A DNA stretch of 19,270 bases from a virus (Duplodnaviria; Heunggongvirae; Uroviricota; Caudoviricetes), in the IMG/VR virus record IMGVR_UViG_2648501186_000011, positions 1 to 19,270 of that record; one strand, written 5' to 3'. Below are positions 961 through 18,973 of the stretch, piece after piece. The translations under genes and the position numbers were made by a program. The notes under the pieces were generated by a model, which saw only the letters and a list, made by a program, of their open reading frames with translations, did not search any database and was not told the DNA's origin. How positions within the stretch are numbered: the stretch's first letter is position 1; the number at the start of each line of letters is the position of its first letter.

Positions 961-974
961 CGAATCACCTCACT

Positions 975-1007: not shown

Positions 1008-1039
1008 AACGTTCATGTTTTATTTAGGTAGGAGAATCC

Positions 1040-1873: not shown

Positions 1874-1882
1874 TATTACCCC

Positions 1883-2305
1883 TTAAAAACGCGCTTGATA
1901 GTCAATTTTTAATGTTAGAGTTGCGACTACATAACCATCGCTAGAATCATCTTCCCATGCTGTTTTACTTGCTACGGGGTTAATATCCATGATGCGAATA
2001 CCAGTTTCGATCAATCTAGGGTTGGTTGCGTCAATTTTAATTAGATCATAAACGGCTTTATGAACGGCTGTTTCACCGCGACTAGAGAAGACCTGAAATT
2101 CGATATTCAACGAGGATAATTGACCGTTACCACTACCACGAATAGGGGTAAATGTTTCATCCATTTCTACGATCCATACAGTAGCGTCTGTATCGCTCGA
2201 TAGCTTCGCGTGTTCAGCATTAAGGTCTAATCCTAGCTGGTCGGTAATAATATCCATAAAAGCGCGTTTAAGAGCTAATCGAGGCATATTATTCATACTT
2301 GCCAT
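1883..2305 (-). CDS. Hypothetical structural protein (140 aa)
   Basis: ORF track; SD AGGGGG 5 nt upstream of ATG at 2305. Overlaps the upstream gene by 17 nt, suggesting translational coupling. Function not recognised. Confidence 0.6.
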   Translation of the reverse strand: MASMNNMPRLALKRAFMDIITDQLGLDLNAEHAKLSSDTDATVWIVEMDETFTPIRGSGNGQLSSLNIEFQVFSSRGETAVHKAVYDLIKIDATNPRLIETGIRIMDINPVASKTAWEDDSSDGYVVATLTLKIDYQARF

Positions 2306-2579
2306 GTTTACCCCCTACTACAGTAATATAGGCTTCAATAAGGCCGGATCTGTCATCTTTAATATAATTAACCTTATTACGCACACCTTCGATAATGACA
2401 ATATCACCGGACTTTAGATCACCTCGTGCACAAATCAGATATTCACTTTCAGTAACACCACCATCCGGTGTATCAATATGATTAAACTCGTGATGTGCTT
2501 TGATGATTTTCCCGTCTGATTTTTGAAATTCTTCTGCAAATTTTAAAGCCCTGCGAATCTGGCTATCAGTTAATTTCAT
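2289..2579 (-). CDS. Hypothetical small structural protein (96 aa; start refined from the ORF-track 2624)
   Basis: The ORF-track start at 2624 has no SD and lies inside the terminator hairpin. The internal ATG at 2577-2579 (MKLTDSQIRR...) is preceded by AGGGGG with a 5-nt spacer. Confidence 0.55.
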   Translation of the reverse strand: MKLTDSQIRRALKFAEEFQKSDGKIIKAHHEFNHIDTPDGGVTESEYLICARGDLKSGDIVIIEGVRNKVNYIKDDRSGLIEAYITVVGGKHGKYE

Positions 2580-2609
2580 GAGTACCCCCTTTATGGAGTA
2601 TTTACATAC

Positions 2610-2635
2610 AAAAAAGCCCCGCACTAGGCAGGGCT
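2610..2635 (-). terminator. Intrinsic terminator downstream of the capsid gene
   Basis: Minus-strand RNA: AGCCCUGC-CUAGU-GCGGGGCU followed by UUUUUU (8-bp stem with one G.U). Sits about 110 nt after the 684-aa ORF stop, a typical place for a terminator after a highly expressed capsid gene. Confidence 0.65.
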
Positions 2636-2742
2636 AATTATCATTCTTTAGGCTTGCGGCCTCGTTTTGCTGTGGCTTTCGCCTTAACCGTCTGGGGTTC
2701 TTCCCCCAAATCGGGGGAAGGAATAGAAGGTTCTACAGGAGT

Positions 2743-4797
2743 TCATTCACCTTTTTTCTGAACTACGGTCAGTGCGCTATGGTCCATAACAGCCCAATCA
2801 AGGTCAGCCCATACGCGGAAGTACAGGTTGCCAGCCGCGCGACCTGTGGTATCGTCGCAATCCAGTTCCAGCGATCCGAAGTCTGCAATAACAAGGGAGC
2901 TAAAGTCACCAAACAGCATGGTATCCTGAGCAACTACACCAGAGCCATAGATCGGACGGTTAACCAGCTTGTCACCTTCTACCAGGAAGCCCGGAACGTT
3001 AGCAGCTTTGAGTTGCGCTGCCAGTTCAGCTTTAACAACACCACGGGTAGCAAATGCCAGATCCGCTTCGTTATAACCTTTATCGGTCAGTTCAGCTACC
3101 AGTTTCAGGAACTCGGCATAAGTCCAATCAATCTGTTTAACTTTGCCAGCATCGGTCAGCATCTTAGTCAGGCCATCACGAGCGTTAGTGTTAGCAGCAT
3201 TGGACAGAATCGCTTTTTCCAGAGCGATAGCACTATGTTTCAGCATGTGCTCACCAACGATAGCACCGATGTTAGGCAGAGTGATAGCGGCCTGGCGAGT
3301 TACAGGAACAATTCCATTGAATGTCTTAAGAGTCATCGGCTGTGCTGCAAACTTGATAGTACCTTCACCAGCGGATTGGCCTTCTGCAACAAAACCGAAG
3401 TTTTCCAGATTGCTAGAAGTCAGAGACGGCAGAGAAACAGGACCAGTTGCGTTAATGGTACGAGCGCCCAATTTACCCAGAATCGAGCGTTCCATGATCA
3501 TATCAACGAAGCAATCATGGCGGATTTCTTCACCAACTACTGGTTTCAGGGATTCCATGTTCTGACCAGCACGCAGAGCAGACGCCGGAATGAATACGGA
3601 GTTAGAACGCTGTGCGCGACCACGCGCTGCGGCTTTACGTGCTTCTTCCTGAGAATATTCAGCTTCTGCGCCAGTCAGGGCTTTACCCTCTGCGATTGCA
3701 CGCACAGCCTTATTAAGATCGAAACGGGATTCCAGAGTTTTAATGGTATCGGTCATGGTAATTTTTCCTTTAACAAAAGTTTTAGATTCGGTAGTATTTA
3801 GTGCGCGTGCTTTTTCTTTAAAATTTTCAATAGTCACGGCACTATCTTTAATTGCAGCTTCAATTACGTCTTCGGAGATATTTAGATGTTTTCCGATAGC
3901 ACGAATTTCGGCGGTATCTTCGCGAGAACGTTCAAACGGTTTTTCGTCGTCTTCAATCTTTTCTTCTTCGACTGGTTCGGATGTATTTTCCGTTTCGTCG
4001 TTCTCGTCTGTATCTTTATTTAGTTCTTCTGTTTCTTCCGGTTCATCTTCGGAACGTTCTTCTTTTTCTTCTGGCGTTACTTCTTGCGGTTCTTCCACAT
4101 CTTCGCCACTGTCAGCACTATTTCCAGAATCGGAATCAATTTCTTCATTTTCTTGTTCCTCTTTCTCTTCTTCGGAACGTTTTTCTTCATCTTCCGGTTT
4201 AATTTCTTCGACCGGAGTATCTTTAATTTCGTCTTCCACTTGTTCACCCTCCAAAACAATCATTTCGTTGTCTGTATTTAGAGAGCGTCCAACACCCGCA
4301 TTAAATGGATCTGCGGCACACGTTACAAGACTGCATTCGAAAGGTTGCCAGCGTGTAACATAATAGATCCCTTTGTTAAAATCGGCTTTGCCATCAAGAA
4401 CGTTATAACCGACGCTAACTTGTGAAAGTGTTCCCTCTTTTACCTTCTCAAAGCATTCATTAGCCAGTTGGCCTACTTTGGAGAATTGGACAAGGCAACG
4501 ACCTATACGGTCTTCGTCAATACGAGCGGAGCCAGGAACAATCTTACCGATATGAAGATCCAGATTGTGATTAAACAGAAGACTTGCGTTAGTCTCGTTT
4601 AAAACGGATAGATCAACCGCTGATTCATCGTGTACGAGAATCTCTTTTAATTCGACTTGCTCGCCGTCCTGATTCATGTAATAACGTGTATAAGGAGCCT
4701 CGCTTGAGAAAGCCAATTCAATAATTCGTTCGTCTTTTTCTTCGATAAAATCAGGGGTATCTACCGCAACACTACGACGGAATTGTTTTGTTGTCAT
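2743..4797 (-). CDS. Prohead protease / acidic linker / major capsid protein (HK97 fold) fusion, 684 aa
   Basis: N-terminal ~175 aa carry motifs I associate with HK97-type prohead proteases (LLFNHNLDLHIGK, VSVGY, ECSLVTCAADPFNAG). Residues ~185-300 are extremely Glu/Asp-rich low complexity. The C-terminal ~320 aa look like an HK97-fold capsid domain and the gene sits where a capsid gene belongs, after the portal. SD AAGGTG 4 nt upstream. Confidence 0.7.
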   Translation of the reverse strand: MTTKQFRRSVAVDTPDFIEEKDERIIELAFSSEAPYTRYYMNQDGEQVELKEILVHDESAVDLSVLNETNASLLFNHNLDLHIGKIVPGSARIDEDRIGRCLVQFSKVGQLANECFEKVKEGTLSQVSVGYNVLDGKADFNKGIYYVTRWQPFECSLVTCAADPFNAGVGRSLNTDNEMIVLEGEQVEDEIKDTPVEEIKPEDEEKRSEEEKEEQENEEIDSDSGNSADSGEDVEEPQEVTPEEKEERSEDEPEETEELNKDTDENDETENTSEPVEEEKIEDDEKPFERSREDTAEIRAIGKHLNISEDVIEAAIKDSAVTIENFKEKARALNTTESKTFVKGKITMTDTIKTLESRFDLNKAVRAIAEGKALTGAEAEYSQEEARKAAARGRAQRSNSVFIPASALRAGQNMESLKPVVGEEIRHDCFVDMIMERSILGKLGARTINATGPVSLPSLTSSNLENFGFVAEGQSAGEGTIKFAAQPMTLKTFNGIVPVTRQAAITLPNIGAIVGEHMLKHSAIALEKAILSNAANTNARDGLTKMLTDAGKVKQIDWTYAEFLKLVAELTDKGYNEADLAFATRGVVKAELAAQLKAANVPGFLVEGDKLVNRPIYGSGVVAQDTMLFGDFSSLVIADFGSLELDCDDTTGRAAGNLYFRVWADLDWAVMDHSALTVVQKKGE

Positions 4798-4817
4798 AGA
4801 TCACCTTGAAAATTATT

Positions 4818-4834
4818 GGGGGCATTGCGCCCCC
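4818..4834 (-). other. Perfect hairpin between portal and capsid genes
   Basis: GGGGGC-attgc-GCCCCC palindrome in the 43-bp gap, immediately upstream of the capsid-gene SD. No U-tract, so a processing or stability element is more likely than a terminator. Confidence 0.4.
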
Positions 4835-4840
4835 GTTGGG

Positions 4841-6364
4841 TTATTCATTTTGAGTATAAGGCGATTTTTCTTTTTCAGTTTCACCCTCACTCACGACGCA
4901 TGTATTTAGCATGTGTTTTTCAGATTCAATTTGTTTGAAAGTCTGAGCAACGTCATAACCCATTTCAGTGATAATCTGAGATTTGGATTTTAAGCCATTT
5001 TCTAACATCATTATTTCGGCTGAGATATCTTTCACCGGATCAACAGACTCAACTTTCGGCCTACTTACCGAAGTAACATCAATAATTGATTCGATCTGAG
5101 TCATTCGAATATTGAGTTTCGAATTAATCACCGCATGTTCAAGGAATGCTTGGAATAACGGTAGAATAACGGTATCAATTAAGCGATCTTGATGCGCTTT
5201 GAAGCGGTTCTTTTCCATTAATGAGCCAAATCTCGCTGCGGAGAAATTCACTGAGCTAGTATCACCAGTCAATGCGGTTTTATAGCTGGAGAGACCCATA
5301 CTAATGGACGTTAGCATTGCCTCGTTAAACGTTTCGAAGTCATCGCCGCCTTGTGTGCTTTGCACCGTCTTAATATCTTGCCCCGGTTCCAAAACGTTAA
5401 TAGTACCCGGTTCGAAATCGGTGATCATCGTCGGCGGTTGATAGTTTTCCGGTTCTTCTTCACCAACATCAAAGGAGTCTTGATTTTCTTTTTCGCTTGT
5501 GATAAACGCCATGCTACTTGCGTGCACGCGTTTGCCAATGATTACGGTTTCGCGGAATGCTTCAAGGTGAGCTATATCTTTGATTATTGGCAGAAAATCC
5601 GTACATCCGCGTAAGGCTTCGGCTGTGCTGGGGATAAAGTAATGCAGCACTCGTTCCGCTGGGATTCGTACACGTTCACCGATGAAGGATTGAGTAAACA
5701 GATCGCGCCGTCTAAACCAGTATGCAACAGGTTTTTCATCTTCGTACTCGATACCAGCATAAACGACATTACCGTTATCTAGAGTACGCTGGTCCGCCCA
5801 ATCAACATGATCCGCGCCATAGATGGACACTTGCAGATCTTTACCATCTTCATGGAGTACCAGAAACGCATCACCGCCCATCACACGCTCTTTTTCCATC
5901 AGCTTTAAGCACTCAAGGAAGTTAATCTTTCCGTTGCGTGAGAATCGTTTCTGAGAGCTAGCCCAACGCCAGAAAGCATTCTCGATTGCTGTGTTAGTGG
6001 TTGCGTCCAGCTTTTCCCCTTTCATAACGAAGGTTCGAGGCTGTAAACCAGTACCTACCACGGAATCGATGACATGTTGGCAATAACGGGAGCCGATAGA
6101 AGTGTTTAACGCAAGGTGTCGCCCTTGATTGTATAAACGTGATGCAGATCCCTTGATCGCGGCGTTAATGCTGCCAGTGATAACCTGACGCGCTGTGCTG
6201 CCTTCAATGCGATCTGATTCAACCAATCCTAATGATCGTTGATGTAGAGCCTTCGTAAATTGTTCAATCTTACGATCTACGAATAATTTGCGGTGCTGGC
6301 GAATACCGATTTTCTTAACCGGATTCACTGGCAATTCTTTTTTACGTTTGAAAAAATTAAACAT
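4841..6364 (-). CDS. Portal protein (lambda gpB-like position and size), 507 aa
   Basis: Size and position between the terminase large subunit and the capsid gene match a lambda-type portal. SD AAGGA 6 nt upstream. Family called from context, not from a motif I can pinpoint. Confidence 0.6.
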   Translation of the reverse strand: MFNFFKRKKELPVNPVKKIGIRQHRKLFVDRKIEQFTKALHQRSLGLVESDRIEGSTARQVITGSINAAIKGSASRLYNQGRHLALNTSIGSRYCQHVIDSVVGTGLQPRTFVMKGEKLDATTNTAIENAFWRWASSQKRFSRNGKINFLECLKLMEKERVMGGDAFLVLHEDGKDLQVSIYGADHVDWADQRTLDNGNVVYAGIEYEDEKPVAYWFRRRDLFTQSFIGERVRIPAERVLHYFIPSTAEALRGCTDFLPIIKDIAHLEAFRETVIIGKRVHASSMAFITSEKENQDSFDVGEEEPENYQPPTMITDFEPGTINVLEPGQDIKTVQSTQGGDDFETFNEAMLTSISMGLSSYKTALTGDTSSVNFSAARFGSLMEKNRFKAHQDRLIDTVILPLFQAFLEHAVINSKLNIRMTQIESIIDVTSVSRPKVESVDPVKDISAEIMMLENGLKSKSQIITEMGYDVAQTFKQIESEKHMLNTCVVSEGETEKEKSPYTQNE

Positions 6365-6373
6365 TTTAAATCC

Positions 6374-6871
6374 TTATCGAGTTAAGCGTACTTTAATCGG
6401 TGTGATCGGTGAGTAATTCCCAGCTTTGCGGCGTTCTTGCTGAATCAGTTTTACGAGTTGTTTTTCGTAATCCTTTTTCAGTTGCTGCAATACCGCAAGG
6501 GATTCATAGGCGAAAGAATTGCCTTTGATCGTGAGAGAACTCAACGCGCTTTCATCATTGTCTAGACGTGCAAAAATAACTTGTTCGATTAAAGAAATGG
6601 TATTTCGAAGATATTCTTTCTTTGTTTCTTTAACGAAGACTGGCAATACGGTTAATTCCTGCATGGATACCAGTTCTTCATCAAGAGTAATAACAATGGT
6701 CATCTTCCCTTCTGGAAAGTCTAACGTTTTAATCTCGTGATTTTCCGGTGCATCATCGACCTGATAGACAATGCCTTTGCTATTACCTACCTGAATGGTT
6801 ACACCCTCTTCATTCGCCAGCGTGATTTTTTCGCCTTTACGAATTACTAAGGGAATTAGTTCTAAACTCAT
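6374..6871 (-). CDS. Hypothetical protein (165 aa) in the lambda gpW position
   Basis: ORF track; SD AAGGGG 5 nt upstream. Lies between terminase and portal where lambda has gpW, but is much longer; no confident similarity. Confidence 0.55.
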   Translation of the reverse strand: MSLELIPLVIRKGEKITLANEEGVTIQVGNSKGIVYQVDDAPENHEIKTLDFPEGKMTIVITLDEELVSMQELTVLPVFVKETKKEYLRNTISLIEQVIFARLDNDESALSSLTIKGNSFAYESLAVLQQLKKDYEKQLVKLIQQERRKAGNYSPITPIKVRLTR

Positions 6872-6920
6872 AATTACCCCTTATTTAATTGTTATTGGAT
6901 TAACAATATTTAGGAGTAAA

Positions 6921-6940
6921 GCCGCCCCGCAGGACGGCAT
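6921..6940 (-). other. Hairpin immediately after the terminase large subunit stop
   Basis: Minus-strand RNA GCCGUCC-UGCG-GGGCGGC (7-bp stem with one G.U) followed by UUUACUCCU. The GCCCCGCAGG core recurs at 12944-12959. Confidence 0.4.
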
Positions 6941-6944
6941 GTGA

Positions 6945-8870
6945 TTAGAAGTTATTAACCCAGCTATTACGACGCACAGGACGCGCCATAGGACGACGAT
7001 TAGGCTTATTGTGAGGGATTGGCTTAGTTTCCTGTTTTTGCTCGTCAGAATGCGATTTAGGAGCTTCTACGGCGGTTTCTGTTTCACGGTTCAGCTTTTC
7101 TTTCAGTGCAATGAGTTTATCCCATGACATTTTTGAAAGAACATAGCGAGAAGCAGCCAGACAATACACAAAACAGTCGAGGCATTCGTTCCTCTGCGAT
7201 CCGGGATTTTTCACCCAACGTGTTCCGGTAGCGGTGCGCTTGATGGACTCACTAAGAAGCTGATCGAGATAGTCATCAGGAACGGTGTGTGATATCTCTA
7301 AGCCAATATGCGGATTATCCTTCAAGTTGCGTGTTAATAGCTCACGAACAGCGGTTTTACCGACGTTTACACCCAACATAAGCAATTCGTGACCACCCGT
7401 GGTAGTTGGCTTAACCGGAATCAGTGGAGCGTTACCGGAGGAACTCCCTTTAATGGCATGAAGATTTTTCCATTTGGTGCAAATGCGGTAGCCAGCTTGT
7501 GTAAATTTACCGTTCGAAGTATCAAGGAAACTAGCCAGAACAGGAACACGCTGGCCTGATACCGTGGTAAACCTGCTTTTCTGGAAGTTGATTAGCTTAT
7601 CCCATACAGGTGATTCGTATCTCTCACAGTTATAATCTCGGAAGACACGGTGATCGAGGATGTAAATCTTATCTTTCGCGATGCCTAGCATAGTTGACTC
7701 GACGCGATCCAACTGCTGGTCCACGCCAAATGTGGCGAAAATAACATCATCTGGGATATTTTCTACACAAACTTCGGTTTTCAGTTGTTCCAGTTCGTTG
7801 ACTTCTACCGCTGTTTCTGCGTCATCGTACACAGTGCCGAGAACTGTATTGTAAAAACTTTGTAAATCAAAGGTTTGCCACGCTTGCGAGAAGTCAGAAA
7901 CACATGATTTGATAGAGCTAAAAGGTGAATACAGACGGCTGATCCAGAATCCTGCTACATCACTTTCACGGGTAGCTCTCCATTCTCCTTGTGCAACCGC
8001 TCTAATGCGATCCCCTTCTGACCAATCACTCTGGCAATGAGGGCAAACATAACGGGCGCTTTCAACACATGGCAGATTGCGACCATCCTGATTTTTCCAC
8101 TCGAACTTAACATTTTCCCACTCGATCACCTGGTGTTTCCCGCAATGCGGACAAGGAACAAAGAATTTACGCTGATCACTTGATAACCATTGTTGATTAA
8201 TCGGTCCCAGCTTAGTGGTCGGGGTACTGGAAACGATAATTCTTGCTTCATCCCCGAAAGTGGTTGCGCGGTTAGCCGCAAGTGCAATCGGATCGCCCTC
8301 TTCACTAGCACTGGCAGCATCACATTCATCAAGCAGAATCAACGGGCTGGTTTTTGAACGCAAGGTTGATGGGCTAGTAAGCGATACCATGTAAAGAAAA
8401 TGATTAGTCTTAAGCTGAATCTGGCTATTGTTATTAACAGCGTTGCGATCATTCTTGTCGGTGATTGCTTCGCGTAATGCCGGACATGCTTCAATGGCTG
8501 GTCGGATCTTCCCGCTTAGGTACTGAGCGGTTTCCTTCGTGGTTGCTTGGCCTATGATGATATTGCTGGGATCGTTAGCTATCTTATTGAATAATATACC
8601 ATTAAGGATGGAAGTTTTGCCGATCTGGGCACTTGTACAAAAAATGTACTTTTTCTTATTCTCTAAGAAAGGAGCATCAATCATGCCTTTCTGAAAGCTG
8701 GTTAATTTAATTTTAGCGCCAGCTTGTGGTCCATCCACTAGGATCATGTTTTCCTCGCACCATTCAGATGGTAAACGCTTAATTGGCGGTCGGATATGTT
8801 TTGATACTTCGTTAAAAATTCGCTTGAGTTTAAATTTATTTGAGAGTTTTTTCACCGTGATTATCCTCAT
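6945..8870 (-). CDS. Terminase large subunit, lambda gpA family (641 aa)
   Basis: Similar in length to lambda gpA as I recall it. Walker A-like [10 protein letters not shown], Walker B-like [11 protein letters not shown], a Cys pair [13 protein letters not shown], and a C-terminal [16 protein letters not shown] that resembles the lambda gpA C-terminus (from memory). No SD before the ATG, and an in-frame stop 18 nt upstream excludes a longer N-terminus. Confidence 0.85.
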
Positions 8871-8925
8871 ATCAACAATATGTTGTATTTAGATAAATAC
8901 GGGTATTAAGATTTAAGGGGGTTGT

Positions 8926-9531
8926 ATGCTAATTAATCAGCAACAAAGAGATGAATTAGAATTAGCATTTTCTTATTGTACCGGTCATGAATATCGTTTA
9001 CCAGTTAAGCACAAGCATTTAAAAACAGATATAACCACTTCTGGCTTTAGTCGTGATGAAGCGAAACAGATTTTAATCGAGTTGTATCGCGATCATGGGT
9101 ATACCGATATTCATAACTTCTTTAAGAAGCATCGCACATCACAGACAGAGTTCCAGAGAGTCCGTGAATGGTTTGATTTTGATATCAAGCGTTATTATCG
9201 AGTGGATGACGGTCCTATCTATCGGTTGCAGTGGACACCGATCAGGGAAGTGTTGAAACAGAAGAGATTGAATCATGCCATTACACGCTATCGTAACGAG
9301 GCTTTCAAGAAAGGCTATGGTGATACAAGGGAACTATTCGTTGAACTCGCTAACGTGAAATATAGCCACTATTACAACGATCCTACAGGGTTCTTCGAAG
9401 TGCTTCGCAAGGTTGATATTAGTCGGGGTACATATTATTCACGGCTGAGGAAGTACGGGATTAAGGCAGAGTTCTTTATGTCGGTTGACGACTCACCCAT
9501 GTTCAAGATAAAATCTAAGTCCTCTAAATAA
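8926..9531 (+). CDS. Hypothetical basic protein (201 aa) with C-terminal HTH-like motif
   Basis: ORF track; SD AAGGGGG 5 nt upstream. The C-terminal VDISRGTYYSRLRKYGIK resembles the recognition helix of the two small GRP-HTH proteins in this window. Confidence 0.6.
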   Translation: MLINQQQRDELELAFSYCTGHEYRLPVKHKHLKTDITTSGFSRDEAKQILIELYRDHGYTDIHNFFKKHRTSQTEFQRVREWFDFDIKRYYRVDDGPIYRLQWTPIREVLKQKRLNHAITRYRNEAFKKGYGDTRELFVELANVKYSHYYNDPTGFFEVLRKVDISRGTYYSRLRKYGIKAEFFMSVDDSPMFKIKSKSSK

Positions 9532-9566
9532 TATTGAGAAATCACTATTGTTTGGAGGAAACTACT

Positions 9567-9794
9567 ATGACTACTAAAGCTACTCGCGGTCGCCCTGCCC
9601 GTTTTACCCGTGAACAGATGGCTGATATTGCCTACGCTTACTATACAGCGGATCGCGGGAAGGAATCGAAAGAACAGATTCTTAGTGAACATGGGATTTC
9701 AGTAGCCCAATTCTATAAGAATATGAAGAAGTTAGACATTAAATTCTATGTTCAGATCGATGACGGTCAGATCGTAGAAGCAACAGGTTTTTGA
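9567..9794 (+). CDS. Small DNA-binding protein, GRP arm plus resolvase/Hin-type HTH (75 aa; start refined from 9534)
   Basis: ATG at 9567 has SD GGAGGA 7 nt upstream. The N-terminal TRGRPARFT is an AT-hook/Hin-like minor-groove arm and HGISVAQFYKNMKKL is a resolvase-type HTH. Paralogous to the 14077..14292 product. Confidence 0.6.
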   Translation: MTTKATRGRPARFTREQMADIAYAYYTADRGKESKEQILSEHGISVAQFYKNMKKLDIKFYVQIDDGQIVEATGF

Positions 9795-9809
9795 GTTTTG
9801 ATTCTCTTT

Positions 9810-9833
9810 GCCACTCTTCGGAGTGGCTTTTTT
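9810..9833 (+). terminator. Intrinsic terminator after the 8926-9794 module
   Basis: GCCACUC-UUCG-GAGUGGC followed by UUUUUU. Confidence 0.75.
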
Positions 9834-9877
9834 GTATATAAAACAATCTGAGCAAAACTGCGCACATCTCCATATAC

Positions 9878-9905
9878 AAAAAGCCCCACCATTACGGCAG
9901 GGCTT
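9878..9905 (-). terminator. Intrinsic terminator after the 214-aa gene
   Basis: Minus-strand RNA AGCCCUGCC-GUAAU-GGUGGGGCU followed by UUUUU. Closely related in sequence to the terminator at 2610-2635. Confidence 0.6.
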
Positions 9906-9909
9906 CTAA

Positions 9910-10554
9910 TCAGATTCCGAAGATAGCAAGGTCAATACAGTTTTCACTATCAAGCAAATCACCAGGACATTTCTTAGTCTTAGGCTTTCTAACACGCGTT
10001 TTAACGGCTTTAACCTTAATGGTCGTGGGGTTGGCTTCCTGTAACTTGATTTTCGCTCTCATGGCCTCGGCAGCAGCCATAATTTCTTCTTCTATTCTAT
10101 TTCTTTGTTCTTTCTCTCTTTGTGCTTGAAACAGTGCCAGCCTCATCCATTCTATCTTCTGGTGTTCTGGATCTGCATTAGCAAGAGCATCCTTCAAACG
10201 AAGATATTCAACCTTATCCGCATCACTCAAAGAATTATAGAAAGCAAGTTCTTTATTATTTCGTTGTTCTAGTTCCTCTTCCATACGGCGAATATCTTTG
10301 ACGATCATGTAAGCGATGTTAGCACTTAATCCCATCATGATAATCAACACGGATCGCTTTCCACCTCTACCTTCAAAGACATAATCACCATCGGTCTTAG
10401 TTGGCTTTTCTTTTAATGCATCCCAACATCTAAGCAATTCCTCTTCCGCCTTCTGATATGACACCTCACATACAACAGCAACCTCGCTTAAAAGCATAGA
10501 TTTAACGCTATCATCACGCATAGCACGGGTAATATCTTCAATAGTCAGATTCAT
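9910..10554 (-). CDS. Hypothetical protein (214 aa)
   Basis: ORF track; SD GAGGA 6 nt upstream. One moderately hydrophobic segment (SVLIIMMGLSANIAYMIV) and a charged coiled-coil-like C-terminal half. Confidence 0.6.
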   Translation of the reverse strand: MNLTIEDITRAMRDDSVKSMLLSEVAVVCEVSYQKAEEELLRCWDALKEKPTKTDGDYVFEGRGGKRSVLIIMMGLSANIAYMIVKDIRRMEEELEQRNNKELAFYNSLSDADKVEYLRLKDALANADPEHQKIEWMRLALFQAQREKEQRNRIEEEIMAAAEAMRAKIKLQEANPTTIKVKAVKTRVRKPKTKKCPGDLLDSENCIDLAIFGI

Positions 10555-10567
10555 AGTGTTCTATCCT

Positions 10568-10593
10568 CAATAAAAGCCCCATATTTCAGGGGC
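10568..10593 (-). terminator. Intergenic hairpin with U-tract between the Rha gene and the 214-aa gene
   Basis: Minus-strand RNA GCCCC-UGAAAUAU-GGGGC followed by UUUUAUUGAGGA, immediately before the SD of the next gene; more likely an attenuator than a full stop. Confidence 0.5.
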
Positions 10594-10607
10594 AAAATAA
10601 TAAAAAA

Positions 10608-11480
10608 TTAAATTCCAAAGTATTCCAGCGATCCGGCGTTCTTACGAATCAGTGCGGCAGTATTATTGACGATTGCACGAGCATTGTTAGGCTGCGGTAA
10701 TTTCAAAGTTGCTCGTTGTTCTTCTTCAATCAATCCCAATTTAACCAGCACAGGTAAACAGTCAGTTGTGAACTCAAGCTGACCATGTGCTGATTGTCGA
10801 GCGTACATGTAAGCAGGAGGAAGAACATCATAGCCGTTAGGCTTACCAGAAGCATCCAGACGACGCTCAATGTGTTTAGCCTCACATAACCCTTTCAGAA
10901 TGCGCTGTACCTTGCCAGAGCCTCGTTTTTCGCCCAATAAGCGGGTTAAGCTGTGTGCGTCAATGGCACGGCGAACATGGAGATCAACTAATTGTTGATT
11001 CTCGTGAAGCAATTGTTCTTTTTCTTCTTCAAGTTTAACCGCTTCGCGCATCCAGTCGAGCTTAGTCATCTTGCTTGCGTCTGGGAACGGATTAGCTTCT
11101 TTGTTTGCCAATTCTGTTAGTAAACGTGCGTTTTCCTCTTTCAGAATCTTCCATTCTTTAATTACACGATTACGAATCGGTGTGCTATATCCAGTGACAA
11201 GAGTCATGCAAAGTTCTTCGTTCAAATGGCATACCGGATCTTTAACAACAATACCTAAGCCATTGATTTTCTCCACAAGACCAAAATTGGACTCCTGCGG
11301 GATACCCAATTCTTTGTACATCACGCGAATGTCACGCAAAACATGTTTATGTTTCTTTCCGGTAAACTCGGCGATCTGGAAAGATGACATAGTTAATTCT
11401 TTTTCTACAGAGTCGTTTGCAGCAACCAGAGACACGGAAGCAGTTTTAACAGCAGTATTCATAGTAGTAACAGTATTCAT
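10608..11480 (-). CDS. Rha-family phage regulatory protein / antirepressor-like (290 aa)
   Basis: N-terminal FQIAEFTGKKHKHVLRDIRVMYKELGI matches the HxxVLRDI signature I associate with the Rha family. The start is ambiguous between M1 (11480, SD AAGGGG 10 nt upstream) and M7 because of an 18-bp tandem duplication. Confidence 0.65.
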   Translation of the reverse strand: MNTVTTMNTAVKTASVSLVAANDSVEKELTMSSFQIAEFTGKKHKHVLRDIRVMYKELGIPQESNFGLVEKINGLGIVVKDPVCHLNEELCMTLVTGYSTPIRNRVIKEWKILKEENARLLTELANKEANPFPDASKMTKLDWMREAVKLEEEKEQLLHENQQLVDLHVRRAIDAHSLTRLLGEKRGSGKVQRILKGLCEAKHIERRLDASGKPNGYDVLPPAYMYARQSAHGQLEFTTDCLPVLVKLGLIEEEQRATLKLPQPNNARAIVNNTAALIRKNAGSLEYFGI

Positions 11481-11522
11481 AGTAGTAATTCCCCTTTCGG
11501 TTTAGTGATATTGATCCTCCTA

Positions 11523-11554
11523 GTTCCGGCATCACCACCGGAACATTTTTATTT
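11523..11554 (+). terminator. Palindromic hairpin with plus-strand U-tract
   Basis: GTTCCGG-catcacca-CCGGAAC followed by ATTTTTATTT on the plus strand. Oriented to stop plus-strand (antisense) transcription entering the minus-strand operon. Confidence 0.45.
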
Positions 11555-11568
11555 ATGATAGAAATTTA

Positions 11569-11901
11569 TTACCAATCGATTTCTACTTGGTCTTCTTCAT
11601 AATAAGGAATCGCATATTCATAACGCCAATTTTCGATGATTTCACGTTCTTCATTAGTAAGAAGGTGATTGTTAACTGGAGTCGCATTGTGATTACCAGC
11701 TTCGAATTGCTCGCGAACTTCCAGCATTGCATGAATACCAGTTAAGGACATCAGATCAAACGGAACATGCATACTACGGGAGATAGTTTCACGGGATACG
11801 CCCCAATCATTTTCTACATGGCTAGGGGTTACAGAAACGGTTTTGCCGGAGATTTTAACAGTCCAGTCATACAGGGATTTAGTGATGGTAAATTCTTTCA
11901 T
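11569..11901 (-). CDS. Hypothetical protein (110 aa)
   Basis: ORF track; SD AGAGGA upstream; promoter-like sequence immediately upstream. Confidence 0.6.
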   Translation of the reverse strand: MKEFTITKSLYDWTVKISGKTVSVTPSHVENDWGVSRETISRSMHVPFDLMSLTGIHAMLEVREQFEAGNHNATPVNNHLLTNEEREIIENWRYEYAIPYYEEDQVEIDW

Positions 11902-11957
11902 GTTACATCCTCTTTACAAATCTAGGTCAAATAGGTTCAAAGTTGTCAAGTGCGATA

Positions 11958-11986
11958 ATCATAAAAAAGTTTGAAGATATTGTCAA
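11958..11986 (-). promoter_or_regulatory. Sigma70-like promoter: TTGACA, 17-nt spacer, TATGAT
   Basis: Read on the minus strand: -35 at plus 11981-11986, -10 at plus 11958-11963. The -35 overlaps the palindrome at 11980-12000. Confidence 0.6.
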
Positions 11987-12000
11987 ATACCCCTTGACAA
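11980..12000. promoter_or_regulatory. Operator-like palindrome TTGTCAA-N7-TTGACAA
   Basis: Perfect 7-bp inverted repeat with a 7-bp spacer. Further TTGTCAAG, GGTCAAA, GTTCAAA and GTTGACC half-site-like copies between 11923 and 12018. Confidence 0.5.
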
Positions 12001-12022
12001 GACGCCAAAGGGTTGACCTAAC

Positions 12023-12490
12023 TTACAGCATATCTAAGCCTTCATCGTAACCATAGAAGCCATTCTGAGAAGAGAAACAGATTGGAGCGTAGTCGTCGTC
12101 ATCTTCGTCTTGTTCATCGCGTTCTGGTGCTTTCTGAGCGGTTTCTTTGCCGTAGTTAAACATTGCTTCATCCAGTTCATAGACAGTAACGAAGCTACCC
12201 AGGTCAATGTCACCGGAACGGACTTCAAACGGAAGATCATCACGAACAATAATTGCTGGTAGATTCTGGTACTTTAAGCGTTCTTCATCGGTGAAGACGT
12301 TAACAACAATGGTCGGCTTCTTATTACGGCAAAACGCATACCATGCACTAGAGAAATGAGATTCATCAGAGTTGAAAAGAATGTTGTAACCACGTTCACG
12401 GAACATCTTCATTAACTTGTCATTGTGGAAGCTATCAGCATCAAAACCTAACAGGATGAAAGGAGTAGTGGTAGTCATTTTATGGTTCAT
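12023..12490 (-). CDS. Hypothetical acidic protein (155 aa)
   Basis: ORF track; SD AGAGGA 8 nt upstream. First gene leftward of the repeat hub. An inverted repeat AGTGAA-N9-TTCACT (12512-12532) lies in its leader. Confidence 0.6.
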   Translation of the reverse strand: MNHKMTTTTPFILLGFDADSFHNDKLMKMFRERGYNILFNSDESHFSSAWYAFCRNKKPTIVVNVFTDEERLKYQNLPAIIVRDDLPFEVRSGDIDLGSFVTVYELDEAMFNYGKETAQKAPERDEQDEDDDDYAPICFSSQNGFYGYDEGLDML

Positions 12491-12564
12491 AGTGGAAATC
12501 CTCTAAAAGAAAGTGAATCAAGTAAGTTCACTATTATTTATAAAGAGAAAATTCTTGTTATTAT

Positions 12565-12882
12565 GAAAAGAGTGATCTGGTAGAGTCCAAAACTGGTCTG
12601 TACTTGAAAGGTGATTGGATTCAGTCGGGCTAAAGCCCTCCTTCATAGATTTTGATTAAATCATCACCAAAACGAAGAAGTATCTTTAGAATATAAGAAT
12701 CTTTCTTTTGAAGAAATAATAATAATCAAACAAGATGGACGCTCCCTGAGCGTCTGCGAAGCATATCTAATTCCTTCCAGTATCATCAAAGTGATCTAGA
12801 ATCAGTTTGTAATCATTATCTTCAAAGTGATTGTAATATCTTTATCTTGAAAGTGATTATAACTACCTTCTTCAAAGTGATC
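12565..12882. repeat. Direct-repeat family (A/T)TCTTSAAAGTGAT, four good and two degenerate copies
   Basis: Cores at 12787-12795, 12823-12831, 12849-12857 and 12873-12881 spaced 24-36 bp; degenerate copies near 12565-12577 and 12603-12616. Confidence 0.7.
12738..12754. other. Perfect palindrome GACGCTC-cct-GAGCGTC
   Basis: 7-bp inverted repeat with a 3-nt spacer in non-coding DNA. Confidence 0.4.
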
Positions 12883-12943
12883 TTGAATCATCATGTAAAC
12901 CAGATTAAAATCCCTTCCTGAATGATTTCAAAACAGATTACTC

Positions 12944-12959
12944 GCGCCCCGCAGGGCGC
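12944..12959 (+). other. Hairpin GCGCCC-CGCA-GGGCGC followed by a T-rich stretch
   Basis: 6-bp stem then ATAATATTCTTTTCTTTT on the plus strand; terminator-like, sharing the GCCCCGCAGG core with 6921-6940. Confidence 0.4.
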
Positions 12960-13074
12960 ATAATATTCTTTTCTTTTATCTACAATCTCTTTCATACCAA
13001 CTCTTTACTATTAACTATTACATATTACATATGACACCCTTCTAAGCCTTGTCCTGTCTGGGTTTCCGTGATTT

Positions 13075-13166
13075 TTGTACATCCTTGTACATCGTAGTAC
13101 ATGTGTTGTACATCCTTGTACATCCTTGTACACGTCACGTACATAGATGTACATCCTTGTACATCT
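13075..13166. repeat. Helically phased array of nine TTGTACATCC-type repeats
   Basis: GTACA begins at 13077, 13087, 13097, 13108, 13118, 13128, 13139, 13149 and 13159, a 10-11 bp period, so every copy is on one face of the helix. Confidence 0.8.
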
Positions 13167-13249
13167 AGGTTAAAAACCAATCAAAAATAGCCATAAAATC
13201 ACCATTTTGAGGGTGTATTTGCTCAATATTTCATCGTGTTTTTGTGATT

Positions 13250-13322
13250 CTGTACAGCAAATCTGTGTCTTGTACACCTTGTACATCTAATACATGTCTT
13301 GTACACCTTGTACATCTAATAC
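13250..13322. repeat. Second TGTACA cluster with two ~28-bp direct repeats
   Basis: gtcttgtacaccttgtacatctaatac occurs twice (about 13267-13293 and 13296-13322). GTACA at 13252, 13272, 13281, 13301 and 13310. Confidence 0.75.
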
Positions 13323-13495
13323 CGGGGAATAGCCCCCCTAATACCGGGGGATTTGTGGATACTAATACCGGGGAAAAAAAACCTAATACCGGGGGATTTT
13401 TATGTGGATGAATGATGGCCTAATCCGGGGGATTCTCTTACAGGACGGTTATCATTTACCCCCTAATACCGGGGAAATTAACCTAATCCGGGGGA
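13316..13495. repeat. Seven iteron-like direct repeats CTAAT(A)CCGGGG(G)A with DnaA-box-like motifs
   Basis: Copies start at 13316, 13338, 13362, 13383, 13420, 13463 and 13483, mostly 20-24 bp apart. TGTGGATAc (13353-13361) and TGTGGATGA (13403-13411) resemble the DnaA box TGTGGATAA. An AT-rich stretch follows at 13540-13640. Confidence 0.75.
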
Positions 13496-13643
13496 TTTTT
13501 GCTTCCAAAACGGGGATATCGCGGGGAAACCCTTAAATTCATTCAAATATTTTGATAGAAAATTCTTGTATATTATTTAACCAAAAAATCATCAAAAATC
13601 GCTGTAGCTTAATGATTTAAAAGGAATTTTCAAAAGGTCACCG

Positions 13644-13652
13644 TGCTATAAT
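13644..13652 (+). promoter_or_regulatory. Possible extended -10 promoter element (TGcTATAAT)
   Basis: TATAAT at 13647-13652 with TG at 13644-13645; only a weak -35 (TTTTCA region). Confidence 0.35.
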
Positions 13653-13732
13653 AGGTTATAAAGGTTGATAATCATTATTCGCCATTTTCACACAAAAATT
13701 TTGATAGTCTTTTCTCGCTTAGGTCAAGGGTA

Positions 13733-13761
13733 TTGACATCTGTCAAGGATTATTTTATGCT
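13733..13761 (+). promoter_or_regulatory. Sigma70-like promoter TTGACA, 17-nt spacer, TATGCT, with overlapping palindrome
   Basis: -35 at 13733-13738, -10 at 13756-13761. The palindrome TTGACA-tc-TGTCAA (13733-13746) recalls the 11980-12000 operator-like site. Confidence 0.5.
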
Positions 13762-13942
13762 TTTTCTCGTTGGTAGGGGTTGAAATTTTCAAAACAATCC
13801 CCATATAGATGATAAGCAAGATTTTCTCGCTACTAAATACATGTGAGCGATGATTATGACTCACTGACCTGAAAAGCTGAAACAGCATAAAATTCTAAAA
13901 AATGCGGTTTTCAGTTTTTCAAAAAGGGGTACAGGAGTCAGA

Positions 13943-13984
13943 ATGATTAAAAAATCGCCAGATAATATTCTGTCTATAGCGTAA
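13943..13984 (+). other. 13-codon mini-ORF (MIKKSPDNILSIA) with a strong SD
   Basis: AGGAG (13932-13936) 6 nt before the ATG at 13943; stop at 13982-13984. It is followed about 35 nt later by the terminator hairpin at 14021-14041, a leader-peptide-like arrangement. Confidence 0.35.
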
Positions 13985-14020
13985 AACTAAGCGCATTACA
14001 GAATAATATAAATATCATCG

Positions 14021-14041
14021 AGAGCGGTTAACGCTCTTTTT
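14021..14041 (+). terminator. Intrinsic terminator/attenuator upstream of the first rightward gene
   Basis: AGAGCG-GUUAA-CGCUCU followed by UUUUU, 20 nt upstream of the SD for the 14077 gene. Confidence 0.6.
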
Positions 14042-14076
14042 AATAAGAAAGATTTGTCTCTTAAGGGGAAGAAACT

Positions 14077-14292
14077 ATGAAAAACTCAATCATGGGGCGT
14101 CCGGTTAAAATCACCGAAGAAAAATACAAAGAAATCCTGATTGCTTACCACTCACAAGTTAATGCAACGAATGCTGATCGTGATGCACTTCTGGCAAAAT
14201 ATGGAATTACTCGCCGGACGTTTTCAAGGCTAGCTCATCGTTACCCAAATGTGAAAGTCGTAACTAAAGTGGTGAATGTAGAAATAGCATAA
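14077..14292 (+). CDS. Small DNA-binding protein, GRP arm plus resolvase/Hin-type HTH (71 aa)
   Basis: SD AAGGGG 8 nt upstream. MGRPVKIT...LLAKYGITRRTFSRLAHRY is paralogous to the 9567..9794 product. Confidence 0.65.
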   Translation: MKNSIMGRPVKITEEKYKEILIAYHSQVNATNADRDALLAKYGITRRTFSRLAHRYPNVKVVTKVVNVEIA

Positions 14293-14327
14293 ATCGCTTA
14301 CTGAGAATTACATTATGAAACTTTTAA

Positions 14328-14363
14328 CCAATAAAAAAGCCCCCTTGCGGCAACAAGGAGGCT
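14328..14363 (-). terminator. Strong hairpin with U-tract, oriented for the minus strand, between two plus-strand genes
   Basis: Minus-strand RNA AGCCUCCUUG-UUGCCG-CAAGGGGGCU (10-bp stem with one G.U) followed by UUUUUUAUU. On the plus strand the A-tract precedes the hairpin, so it may work bidirectionally. Confidence 0.5.
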
Positions 14364-14396
14364 TGAAATGAAGATTTGATACGGAGATAAAAAGAA

Positions 14397-15512
14397 ATGT
14401 CTAACAAGAATAACACTTCAATTGTATTTATTAACTTCAAAAACGACGAAAGCATTCTGAGCAACAATGAACAGATCGTGATGAAAGATTGTGGTGAAAA
14501 TGTCACTACCGTTTTCAAAGAAACTGCAAACACTCTAACCGAACTGGTTGCTAAAGTTCGCGGATATGGTGCTGTTCGTAAAGCTGAGTTTGAGATGGTT
14601 CAAAACTATACCCGCTCTGTTACGGTTGGCGACAAGAAATATAACAAAAACACACATAAGCTGATCGCTAATGATGAAATCAAACTGGTACAGATTTGCA
14701 CTACCGACAAAAACGCTATTTTCTTGTTGGTTGTTCTTGAAAATGAAGCTGGTTTACGTCGCGGTGTTCTGCGTCACCGTTCCATGCGTAATGAAGCTGG
14801 TGTGATTGGTTCTAAAATCCATAACCGCGCATACACTTCTACTTCCAACTGGATCATTGCTGGCGAGAACGAAGGTAAAACAGGCGAGACTTTCAACATT
14901 GCTTTCTTCTCTGCTTTTGACGAAAAGAAACATGTTAAATGGAAACTGAATAATGAAGCCGTAGAAGCTCCTGTGCGCGATTCTGAGAAACAATCTGTTG
15001 AAATCGATGAATCCCACATCATGGCTATGATTCGCGGCGTAGAGAAGCGTTTACGTGATGAATTTAACGCTAAACTTGAAGCTAAAGACAAAGAGATCGC
15101 GGAACTGAAAGCACGTTTAGAAGCAGTAGAAATCAAGACTATTGACACTACTGAAAATCCTGTTTCTAAAGACGTTGTTGCTGATCTGCAATGCGAGATC
15201 CAGATCGCCAGCGACTTCCAGAAAGCAACCAACAAACTCAATGCAAAATTAGAGCGTCGTGATAATGGTCAGCGTCTGTCTGGTGATGATATTCAGGTTA
15301 TTCTGCGCGGTGATATGAAAGAGATTAATGCTAAGTTTGCACCGAAAGGTGTTTTTGCTAGCAAGATTAACGAAGCCCAGGTCGATGAATTGATGCACGC
15401 GTTAGAAGCAGACACCAACGAGACTGTTAAAGCCGCTAATGATGACGTTGCGGCATCTGCAATCGTTTCTGACGAATATTTGAAAGAATTAGATGCACTT
15501 TTGGCTATGTAA
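14397..15512 (+). CDS. Hypothetical protein A (371 aa): N-terminal globular domain plus C-terminal coiled-coil-like region
   Basis: ORF track; SD GGAG 10 nt upstream. The C-terminal half is rich in charged, heptad-like sequence (KLEAKDKEIAELKARLEAVE). No recognisable family. Confidence 0.7.
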   Translation: MSNKNNTSIVFINFKNDESILSNNEQIVMKDCGENVTTVFKETANTLTELVAKVRGYGAVRKAEFEMVQNYTRSVTVGDKKYNKNTHKLIANDEIKLVQICTTDKNAIFLLVVLENEAGLRRGVLRHRSMRNEAGVIGSKIHNRAYTSTSNWIIAGENEGKTGETFNIAFFSAFDEKKHVKWKLNNEAVEAPVRDSEKQSVEIDESHIMAMIRGVEKRLRDEFNAKLEAKDKEIAELKARLEAVEIKTIDTTENPVSKDVVADLQCEIQIASDFQKATNKLNAKLERRDNGQRLSGDDIQVILRGDMKEINAKFAPKGVFASKINEAQVDELMHALEADTNETVKAANDDVAASAIVSDEYLKELDALLAM

Positions 15513-15539
15513 TTTTAATTTTTAAGAGGAATAACGATT

Positions 15540-16631
15540 ATGAAGACTTACACCGACATTACCAACAAACAATTTTCTACCGCTGATCATTCGGTGGTTA
15601 GGCTTGCTATCTGGTCAGATATGAAATTTACCTTTAAATTTGGGTGTAAAGGATTTAAGATTAATTTTTCAGTTGACCACGTATTACCGGACCGCGCTGA
15701 TGACCTGATTAAGATTTTGCGTTATCGTGGCTATGGCCTAACCAATGGTGAGTTAACCATGATCTACAGCTTCGTTAATAAATCCGGTGATATGCTTGTT
15801 CGTAATATTACTGGTTATGAAATTAACGGTAAAAAAGGTGTTGCTATGACCGTTGTTGGTCGTGGTGGTATGGTTGCCGTTTATACATTCGGGTATAGCG
15901 CATTTTATAGCAAGAAAAATGATTACTATTATGGCAAGCGCACTAAACTAGATCATTACGGTCGTTATAGCCTGGGTGTTGCGGCTAAATATGAAAGTTG
16001 TATTGTTCTTAAAGATTCGATTCATGGTGAATTTGAAATCATGTCACAATACGACAAAACGCCTTATGACTACTACCGTGTAAAAGTTAAAGTACCGAAA
16101 GTGTTAGAGCCTCACGAATCTCATGTTGAATGCCGTGCTAAAACAATTAAAAAACTGCGTGATGAGAATGACCAGCTTTCTACGCGTCTAAGCAAGTTAA
16201 AAACCAAAGTACGAGATAAACGTAATCGTCACACTATCGAAGAACGTAAAGCTGCATACGATGAATACGTGGTTACTTTAAAGAAACGTGATGCTTTGCG
16301 TGAGTATTTTTGCAAAATCGATGCGATGTGCGCTGGTCGTTTGTACAGAGGAAAGAATGTGGCTGCGGTGAGTTTTGAGGAAATGGCAGAATTAACGCCT
16401 ATCAAGGAAGAGATTCAACTACCGAATGAAAAGGTTGCTTTGGTTAACGAAAAACGTAAACTAGTTGAAAAGGTGGCACAGGTGGATAAAGAGATTAAAA
16501 CTAGCGAAGGAATGGTTAAAGAGGCGTACATCGCTTTGCGTGATTCCTTAGAGATTCAAATCAAGCATATTGACCTTGAGATCTTGAAACTGTCCATGCC
16601 TAACCGCCCTACTCTACGTCTTGTTGCTTAA
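15540..16631 (+). CDS. Hypothetical protein B (363 aa): aromatic-rich N-terminal domain plus basic coiled-coil-like C-terminus
   Basis: ORF track; SD AAGAGGA upstream; 27 nt after gene A, so probably co-transcribed. Ends at the strong terminator at 16644-16676. Confidence 0.7.
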   Translation: MKTYTDITNKQFSTADHSVVRLAIWSDMKFTFKFGCKGFKINFSVDHVLPDRADDLIKILRYRGYGLTNGELTMIYSFVNKSGDMLVRNITGYEINGKKGVAMTVVGRGGMVAVYTFGYSAFYSKKNDYYYGKRTKLDHYGRYSLGVAAKYESCIVLKDSIHGEFEIMSQYDKTPYDYYRVKVKVPKVLEPHESHVECRAKTIKKLRDENDQLSTRLSKLKTKVRDKRNRHTIEERKAAYDEYVVTLKKRDALREYFCKIDAMCAGRLYRGKNVAAVSFEEMAELTPIKEEIQLPNEKVALVNEKRKLVEKVAQVDKEIKTSEGMVKEAYIALRDSLEIQIKHIDLEILKLSMPNRPTLRLVA

Positions 16632-16643
16632 GACAATAAAAAA

Positions 16644-16676
16644 GGGAGTCCCCGACGAAAGAGACTCCCTTTTGAT
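16644..16676 (+). terminator. Intrinsic terminator after the A/B operon
   Basis: GGGAGUC-(12-nt loop)-GACUCCC followed by UUUUGAUUU. Confidence 0.75.
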
Positions 16677-16747
16677 TTAGGATCAACACAACAAACAAAT
16701 TAAGGATTCTAAGGAAATTATAATGAACACTACCGTTACATTATTCT

Positions 16748-16782
16748 TTAAAGCCAGAAAATAACCGCCCCCTTCGGGGCGG
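16748..16782 (-). terminator. Intrinsic terminator downstream of the 92-aa membrane-protein gene
   Basis: Minus-strand RNA CCGCCCC-GAAG-GGGGCGG followed by UUAUUUUCUGGCUUU. Confidence 0.6.
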
Positions 16783-16939
16783 GAGGATTAACACTAATCT
16801 ATACTTGTTATGTTTTTATGATGTATAGACCATCGACTATGAAAACACTGTACTGTATGTGTTTTTATGGCTTTTAATCGGGAATCCTCAAAGAAGACCC
16901 CCTGTTAATAACCATAAGGAGAAAAGGCAGATTACATTA

Positions 16940-17218: not shown

Positions 17219-17250
17219 TTGTATTTTGCCTCTAGTTAGACAAACATCCT

Positions 17251-17296
17251 CAAAAAATCAAATCAGAAAAATTGGGAGGGGAGCATCTAACTCCCC
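17251..17296 (-). terminator. Intrinsic terminator after the small terminase gene
   Basis: Minus-strand RNA GGGGAG-UUAGAUG-CUCCCC followed by a U-rich tract (AAUUUUUCUGAUUUGAUUUUUUG). Confidence 0.6.
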
Positions 17297-17348
17297 TTAG
17301 ACGTTGACCCGTTCAACATCTTTCTCACTATTATTTAGTATCTAATTT

Positions 17349-18956: not shown

Positions 18957-18973
18957 AGAATAACTGATTATAT

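Follow-up and report, generated by a model that had tools for sequence, protein, structure and literature searches.

A conserved pair of helix-turn-helix genes divergent from the terminase gene in a lineage of enterobacterial prophages

Background

Is a small pair of genes that faces away from the terminase gene of a tailed phage and carries its own terminator an accessory insertion, or a fixed and working part of the phage? We address this question for IMG/VR virus record IMGVR_UViG_2648501186_000011 (Caudoviricetes), positions 1 to 19,270, a stretch of 19,270 nucleotides (nt) that is referred to throughout as the window. Here, two plus-strand genes encoding proteins of 201 and 75 amino acids (aa), named p201 and p75 and together called the cassette, diverge from terL, a gene for a GpA-type terminase large subunit, and close at a strong terminator. 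A first-pass annotation made from the letters alone had described an opposite-strand two-gene module with a clean terminator beside terL, all elements of which are indeed present with minor adjustments of coordinates, and had likened it to a moron-type insertion. Morons, by the definition that comes from lambdoid phages, are promoter-gene-terminator units of patchy distribution and deviant composition that lie inside late operons. The cassette resembles them as an independent unit with its own terminator, in opposite orientation and beside late genes, but it differs in being universal in its lineage, in having a phage-like composition, and in encoding predicted DNA binders that are paralogous to another gene of the same phage.

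Results

Two conserved genes fixed beside terL

The first gene, p201 (8926..9531, +), has an ATG start preceded by the ribosome-binding site AAGGGGG, and the second, p75 (9567..9794, +), starts at ATG 9567 behind GGAGGA. Both products are basic, with isoelectric points (pI) of 9.0-9.6, and the value of 9.57 for p201 agrees with the basic 201-aa protein first described. Homologues of p201 fell into 35 clusters and those of p75 into 22, from Escherichia, Shigella, Salmonella, Proteus, and Providencia, with conserved lengths. Because full-length homologues were found down to 47% identity and the ratios of nonsynonymous to synonymous substitution rates (dN/dS) against eight relatives were 0.11-0.29 for p201 and 0.11-0.33 for p75, as expected under purifying selection, the comparisons indicate that both open reading frames (ORFs) are real genes. 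The cassette ends at an intrinsic terminator (9810..9833, +), in which a hairpin at 9810-9827 (-13 kcal/mol, z-score -5.0), with a 7-bp GC-rich stem and a UUCG loop, is followed by a run of six T residues up to 9833, and the identical hairpin is found in relatives (e.g., 10884-10901 of the related locus L001). While this terminator is clear, candidates for the cassette's own promoter are weak only. On the other side, a convergent minus-strand terminator at ~9876-9907 (-18.4 kcal/mol, z-score -4.2) closes the neighboring 214-aa gene. Separately, a sigma-70-like match of 10/12 positions (TTGACG-N18-TAAAAT) lies at 9485-9514 (+), inside the 3′ end of p201 and just upstream of p75, and is kept in L001; it could be an internal p75 promoter, but such sites occur at chance frequency and their conservation may be due to coding alone.

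The window is part of an Escherichia coli prophage and shares 92% identity with NZ_CM177021.1, in which its closest relative (L034 and L040 among the related loci; about 2352100-2392900 of that record) is annotated as a prophage of ~40 kb whose insertion splits hicB. A second member of the lineage (L046) sits in ycdX. Among the prophage genes are those for a large serine recombinase (559 aa) and a DEAD-box helicase as well as endonuclease-like genes, and the lineage is a temperate Enterobacterales prophage family of ~40 kb that uses the large serine recombinase. In the window, the 641-aa minus-strand ORF terL (6945..8855, -) is assigned to the GpA family by GpA_ATPase (2.7e-59) and GpA_nuclease (6.7e-44) of Pfam and by phrog_15 (4e-140). 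It heads a long minus-strand morphogenetic operon with head-tail joining, portal, protease-capsid fusion, and tail genes, which the layout of the annotated prophage describes as a head-tail-lysis operon.

The order terL (-), p201 (+), p75 (+), Rha (-) was invariant in 33 of 33 IMG/VR prophage contigs, across which the identity of capsid, portal, and Rha falls to 36-66%, and it recurred in loci from E. coli, Proteus, and Salmonella in which p201 is 47-65% identical; p75 was always the next gene after p201 in relatives. When 5,426 complete E. coli genomes were searched with terL plus the cassette, all 54 matching genomes carried the cassette and none had terL without it, and the one among them whose annotation was inspected, KSC64 (prophage in ycdX), showed the same order. 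For 25 of these 54 genomes, the match was limited to window position 8877 to ~9850, which covers the whole cassette, upstream region and terminator included, at 82-93% nucleotide identity, the terL and Rha sides being too diverged for megablast, and the cassette thus appears as a conservation island with sharp edges. Truncated cassettes or cassettes disrupted by insertion sequences (IS) occur in some genomes. The guanine-plus-cytosine (GC) content is 0.40 in p201 and 0.43 in p75, close to that of the window (0.413) and of the neighboring genes (0.40-0.45). On the basis of this composition, the invariant position, the presence in 54/54 genomes, and the purifying selection, we conclude from sequence comparison that the cassette is a fixed, lineage-specific part of the prophage and not an accessory insertion. 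The first-pass annotation had set down beforehand what would speak against its moron proposal, namely conservation of the module at this position in all relatives together with a known structural or packaging function: the former was found in every relative examined, whereas the latter was not found. The truly accessory gene of the neighborhood is p214 (9910-10554, -; 214 aa), which lies between the two convergent terminators and Rha, has no family match, and is patchy: of about 40 related loci, the window, L010, and L034 alone carry it.

Beyond the lineage, terL-seeded loci of Leclercia and Enterobacter (terL 37-48% identical across other genera) have terS, the small terminase subunit gene, directly upstream of terL and no cassette, and in Atlantibacter terS lies 5 kb from terL and there is one 55-aa single-domain homologue, without p201 or p75. 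In the window, a Nu1-like terS (17349-17981, -; phrog_57, 9.8e-18) lies 8.5 kb from terL, and regulatory and replication-type genes fill the interval. Since the distant terL relatives in which terS and terL are adjacent have no cassette, the cassette is specific to one lineage that has its whole early/regulatory block between terS and terL. Searches of GenBank phages by blastn and tblastn with the region, p201, and p75 gave no match.

p201 is an internal tandem duplication of the p75 domain

An AlphaFold2 (AF2) model of p75 (predicted local distance difference test, pLDDT, of 80) has a disordered arm, three helices at residues 15-27, 32-41, and 46-55, and a C-terminal beta-hairpin, in keeping with the 75-aa Gly-Arg-Pro (GRP) helix-turn-helix (HTH) protein of the first description. 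The arm ahead of the HTH, R7-G8-R9-P10, is invariant or nearly so in the family, and the third (recognition) helix is almost invariant, with S45, A47, Q48, Y50, K51, and K55 unchanged. Two separate stretches of p201, residues 41-98 and 134-189, align with p75. When the p75-family profile was compared by hhalign with the N and C halves of the p201 family, it matched both domain 1 (9034..9234, +; residues about 37-103; probability 93%, E 3.7e-7) and domain 2 (9307..9516, +; residues about 128-197; probability 94%, E 9.9e-8). The AF2 model of p201 (pLDDT 71) likewise comprises two helix-helix-helix-beta-beta units with a low-confidence linker between them, the first with helices 43-57, 62-68, and 73-83 and strands 87-93 and 98-100, and the second with helices 135-148, 153-162, and 167-176 and strand 181-187; R173 and F76 are invariant, and domain 2 also gave a weak match to phrog_35277. 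Because the profile-profile matches of both halves and the AF2 models agree, p201 is an internal tandem duplication of the p75-type arm-HTH-hairpin domain, and only residues 1-36 and the ~25-residue linker are unique to it. The C-terminal HTH-like motif that the first-pass annotation saw in common with the small proteins is therefore real, but the similarity is wider than stated, and the different N-terminal cargo proposed there is replaced over residues about 37-103 by a second copy of the domain.

A third paralog, p71 (14077..14292, +; 71 aa), with a GRP arm and an HTH, is the first gene of a rightward operon and adjoins an iteron-rich non-coding region; the p75 profile recovered it by hmmsearch at E 1.3e-5, and BLASTP against p75 at E 2e-6. 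In the four relatives scanned (L034 with L040, L035, L038, and L039), the domain occurs in exactly three genes each, and in the window p201, p75, and p71 are all opposite in strand to the structural genes. The suggestion that they form one family of related DNA binders was thus well placed, as all three share one domain. We consider that p75 probably works as a dimer, and the models would make p201 a covalent pseudo-dimer, with two such domains in one chain joined by a flexible linker.

A divergent member of the resolvase/transposase-type HTH class

No family threshold of Pfam, NCBIfam, or PHROG was reached by the domain. The best Pfam indication for p75 was HTH_7 over residues 8-51, at 15.2 bits (E 0.023), which misses the gathering threshold of 23.8 bits; with members scanned singly, HTH_7 matched 3 of 17 p75 homologues, each below threshold, and p201 gave no HTH_7 match. 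A profile search of 1.8 billion representative proteins returned 31 matches only. Those outside the family (P0060, P0061, and P0063-P0065) are proteins of 258-976 aa with 4-7 tandem units of HTH_7, HTH_23, HTH_28, and HTH_Tnp_1, and the strongest of them, P0060, has repeated HTH_7 units that each open with GRPS. As an aside, these five proteins show that multi-copy arrays of the same HTH class exist elsewhere. Sequence searches of PDB gave chance-level matches only, a BFVD fold search returned nothing below E 0.25, and NCBIfam, PADLOC, Rfam, and tRNA scans gave nothing relevant (PADLOC: p201 without a match, p75 at chance level only, E 0.026). Neither p201 nor p75 matched the Mor family, no toxin or membrane feature was seen in the cassette products, and they bear no sequence or fold similarity to the known TerS families (Nu1, Sf6 gp1, and P2 GpM types). 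Together, the homology and structure searches (PDB, BFVD, PADLOC, Pfam, NCBIfam, and PHROG), a kind of check that the first-pass annotation had proposed, produced remote HTH similarity only and no likeness to defence or toxin proteins.

We place the domain in the resolvase/transposase-type three-helix HTH class, as a divergent and unclassified member with a beta-hairpin added. It is like the DNA-binding domain of serine resolvases and invertases (HTH_7; Hin, gamma-delta/Tn3) in the G-R-P arm directly before a compact three-helix HTH, but p75 stands alone, without the recombinase catalytic domain, and the family has an extra conserved C-terminal beta-hairpin (FYVQIDDGQIVEA). With its two linked three-helix units, p201 also recalls the bipartite HTH regions of CENP-B, Tc3/mariner transposases, and Myb; in contrast to these, it has no transposase or other effector domain, a hairpin is added to each unit, and it was born by duplication of a phage gene that is still present as its neighbor p75. 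From the three-helix HTH of the AF2 models, the RGRP arm as in Hin, the remote HTH matches, and the basic pI, we infer that p201 and p75 are sequence-specific DNA binders with an HTH fold and a conserved recognition helix. They are most likely a new, uncharacterised family of an ordinary kind, that of small phage HTH regulators.

The control region shared by terL and p201

The extent of the DNA shared by the two divergent genes depends on where terL starts. The true start is probably GTG 8855, with GAGGAT upstream, rather than ATG 8870: GTG 8855 is called by the Prokaryotic Genome Annotation Pipeline (PGAP) in the 92%-identical record, and the corresponding upstream ATG of most relatives is not in frame with terL and coincides in part with the ribosome-binding site. 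With this start, the gap between terL and p201 is ~70 bp and not 55, and the shared control region (8856..8925) measures 70 bp here and about 85 bp in most relatives. From E. coli to Salmonella this intergenic DNA hardly varies, and Proteus retains its key blocks as well. It contains the inverted 7-mers GTATTTA and TAAATAC (8885..8900), a pair that is unique in the window (0.02 expected by chance) and that may represent either the half-sites of an operator or twin elements close to promoters. All relatives retain both 7-mers, spaced 2, 20, or 28 nt apart; the left 7-mer lies at a distance of 26-29 nt from the start of terL, and the right one is 17-25 nt away from the ATG of p201. Because a strong terminator closes the neighboring minus-strand unit, terL requires a separate promoter in or near the shared gap.

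The window, L010, and L034 have a variant of this region, which lacks ~18 bp of all other relatives, including a TTGATA repeat, and which has a new palindrome (CAACAATATGTTG, window 8874-8886) and a different terL 5′ end. The variant looks like a recombination joint that falls within the control region.

Discussion

A candidate regulator pair of the late operon

We tentatively propose that the cassette is a fixed regulatory unit of the lineage and that p201 and p75 are an autoregulated pair of transcription factors controlling the divergent late (terL) operon, a reading of the sequence that we regard as plausible but still somewhat short of probable. Under this proposal, p75 and/or p201 would bind the AT-rich 70-85-bp shared region at or around GTATTTA/TAAATAC, and the bound proteins would regulate their own promoter and gate late-operon transcription, with a sign (activation or repression) that is not readable from sequence. 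Two HTH heads on a flexible linker could tolerate the variable spacing of the 7-mers, and p71 might have the equivalent part at the phage's second divergent control region. Several observations favor such a role. The cassette is divergent from terL, with which the late operon begins, each 7-mer stays at a fixed distance from the nearby start codon whatever the spacing of the pair, and no CI, Cro, or Q-type regulator is recognisable among the scanned proteins or in the prophage annotation, where the HTH candidates are the three paralogs, Rha, and the Nu1-like TerS only. Further, the near-invariant recognition helix of p75 matches an invariant target, which we count toward a regulatory role.

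Other observations weigh against this proposal. No good sigma-70 promoter was found for either side, the best of the scan being a 9/12 match at 8840-8867, which is at chance level; no sigma-70 assignment held across E. coli, Salmonella, and Proteus, and Proteus has lost a TATTAA box that might be used by p201. The inverted 7-mers could also be -10-like elements of two divergent promoters and not protein-binding sites. In addition, recent recombination between mosaic prophages, and not constraint, may explain in part why the intergenic DNA differs so little, as in L035, where this DNA equals that of L001 up to a breakpoint although p201 is only 49% identical. Covariation between recognition helix and target DNA was sought and none could be extracted, because helices and target are both essentially invariant. 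Finally, every named homologue is a "hypothetical protein" and none is characterised, a literature search by accession found no paper naming the accessions, and a search by prophage features gave nothing relevant.

Regulators of late or middle phage transcription can be encoded beside their target operon, as Mor and C of phage Mu are. The likeness to Mor/C, a small HTH protein at the head of a late morphogenetic operon, is a functional analogy only, and the cassette differs in being divergent and not co-directional, in encoding two paralogous proteins, and in that its regulatory role is a proposal.

Alternative explanations

The first alternative is a special case of the regulator proposal in which sign and timing are defined: p201 and p75 would be an immunity repressor pair, expressed in lysogeny by a phage without CI. 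The want of a CI- or Cro-like protein among the scanned proteins and in the prophage annotation would fit, as would the orientation of the cassette opposite to all lytic structural genes and the strongly diverged p201 alleles (88, 69, 61, 55, and 49% identity) of otherwise similar prophages, a pattern often seen in immunity genes. Yet the cassette is located at the late operon and not at the early/replication control region (12500-14077, flanked by p155 and p71), and neither p75 nor the intergenic target varies enough to set immunity types apart; the truncated or IS-disrupted cassettes also count against immunity, although they are not decisive, as those prophages may be defective. We consider this version unlikely. 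We would give about the same weight to a broader speculation, in which p71, p75, and p201 together form the master circuit (immunity plus late-gene switch) of a lineage without CI, Cro, or Q, with the p201 pseudo-dimer spanning 2, 20, or 28 nt and thereby exerting control over its own promoter and the terL operon simultaneously.

A part in packaging is a less probable alternative still. The cassette occupies the place next to terL where canonical relatives keep terS, which in this lineage lies 8.5 kb away, and p201 and p75 might accordingly recognise cos or pac DNA or aid terminase assembly; some small terminase subunits do have an HTH of the same broad class, and Sf6_terminase and HTH_Tnp_1_2 are among the weak Pfam matches of the remote relatives. 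However, an intact Nu1-like TerS is present (the phrog_57 match above), terS and terL are also apart in the Atlantibacter relative, which has neither p201 nor p75, transcription of the cassette runs against that of the packaging genes, and p71, with the same domain, is the first gene of an unrelated operon.

The moron reading, an autonomously expressed accessory unit beside terL that confers a host benefit such as phage exclusion or a toxin, has in its favor the anatomy of an independent transcription unit (own upstream region, strong terminator, opposite to the late genes), the sharp edges at window 8877 and about 9850 in the E. coli genome comparisons, and the terS-terL adjacency without a cassette in distant terL relatives (Leclercia and Enterobacter), but it is highly improbable given a cassette that holds the same position in all 54 matching E. 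coli genomes and in 39/39 related loci of three genera, has no GC deviation and no PADLOC, toxin, or membrane feature, encodes two plain HTH proteins with a third paralog elsewhere in the phage, and adjoins the gene that is actually patchy, p214, found at only three loci. The moron-type insertion of the first-pass annotation accordingly does not stand.

Significance

If the proposed control of the terL operon by p201 and p75 is true, the cassette is a handle on late-gene control in a lineage without a cultured representative or an annotated regulator, which occurs in ~1% of complete E. coli genomes as well as in Shigella, Salmonella, Proteus, and Providencia. The cassette also defines an unclassified HTH family built of an arm, three helices, and a beta-hairpin, in which p201 is a clean case of tandem duplication of a predicted regulator into what would be a single-chain pseudo-dimer, beside its single-domain paralog. 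For annotation, the lesson is that a gene unit with its own terminator, on the opposite strand and next to terL, is insufficient grounds for calling a moron.

Other features of the prophage

The non-coding stretch next to p71 (12500-14077; 1.5 kb) separates the divergent p155 and p71 operons and is full of repeat arrays: TCTTCAAAGTGAT-like repeats at 12783-12898, TGTACA repeats with 10-nt periodicity at 13075-13177 and more TGTACA copies at 13251-13308, and about 7 copies of CTAATACCGGGGGAT at 13312-13499. Arrays at the same place in relatives are quite different (TTTCAGGGGCAAAA in L035 and L039; CTAGGGATG in L038). The stretch probably serves as an origin of replication or as an early control region, with iterons that travel with the variable downstream 371-aa-type gene. 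A link between the cassette promoter and the iterons, suggested by the resemblance of the -10 region (ACGGGTATTAAG) to the reverse complement of the iteron CTAATACCGGGG, was rejected: the iterons differ completely between relatives while the cassette upstream region is conserved, and the iterons thus belong with the variable p371-type gene.

In the L034/L040 prophage, a copy of IS911 adjoins the large serine recombinase gene. The major capsid gene (window 2743-4797, -) has an N-terminal Peptidase_S78 prohead protease fused in relatives, and in the window's copy the N-terminal part is separated from the capsid part by a long low-complexity stretch that is very acidic; the pI of this copy as a whole is 4.5. 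Finally, the nearest terL among GenBank phages (46% identity) is in L041 (PQ671644.1, Escherichia phage DCP80), which is without the cassette. This 141-kb record, assigned to Straboviridae, has terL at its start followed by portal- and capsid-size ORFs in the window's order, and it may be chimeric or mis-assembled.
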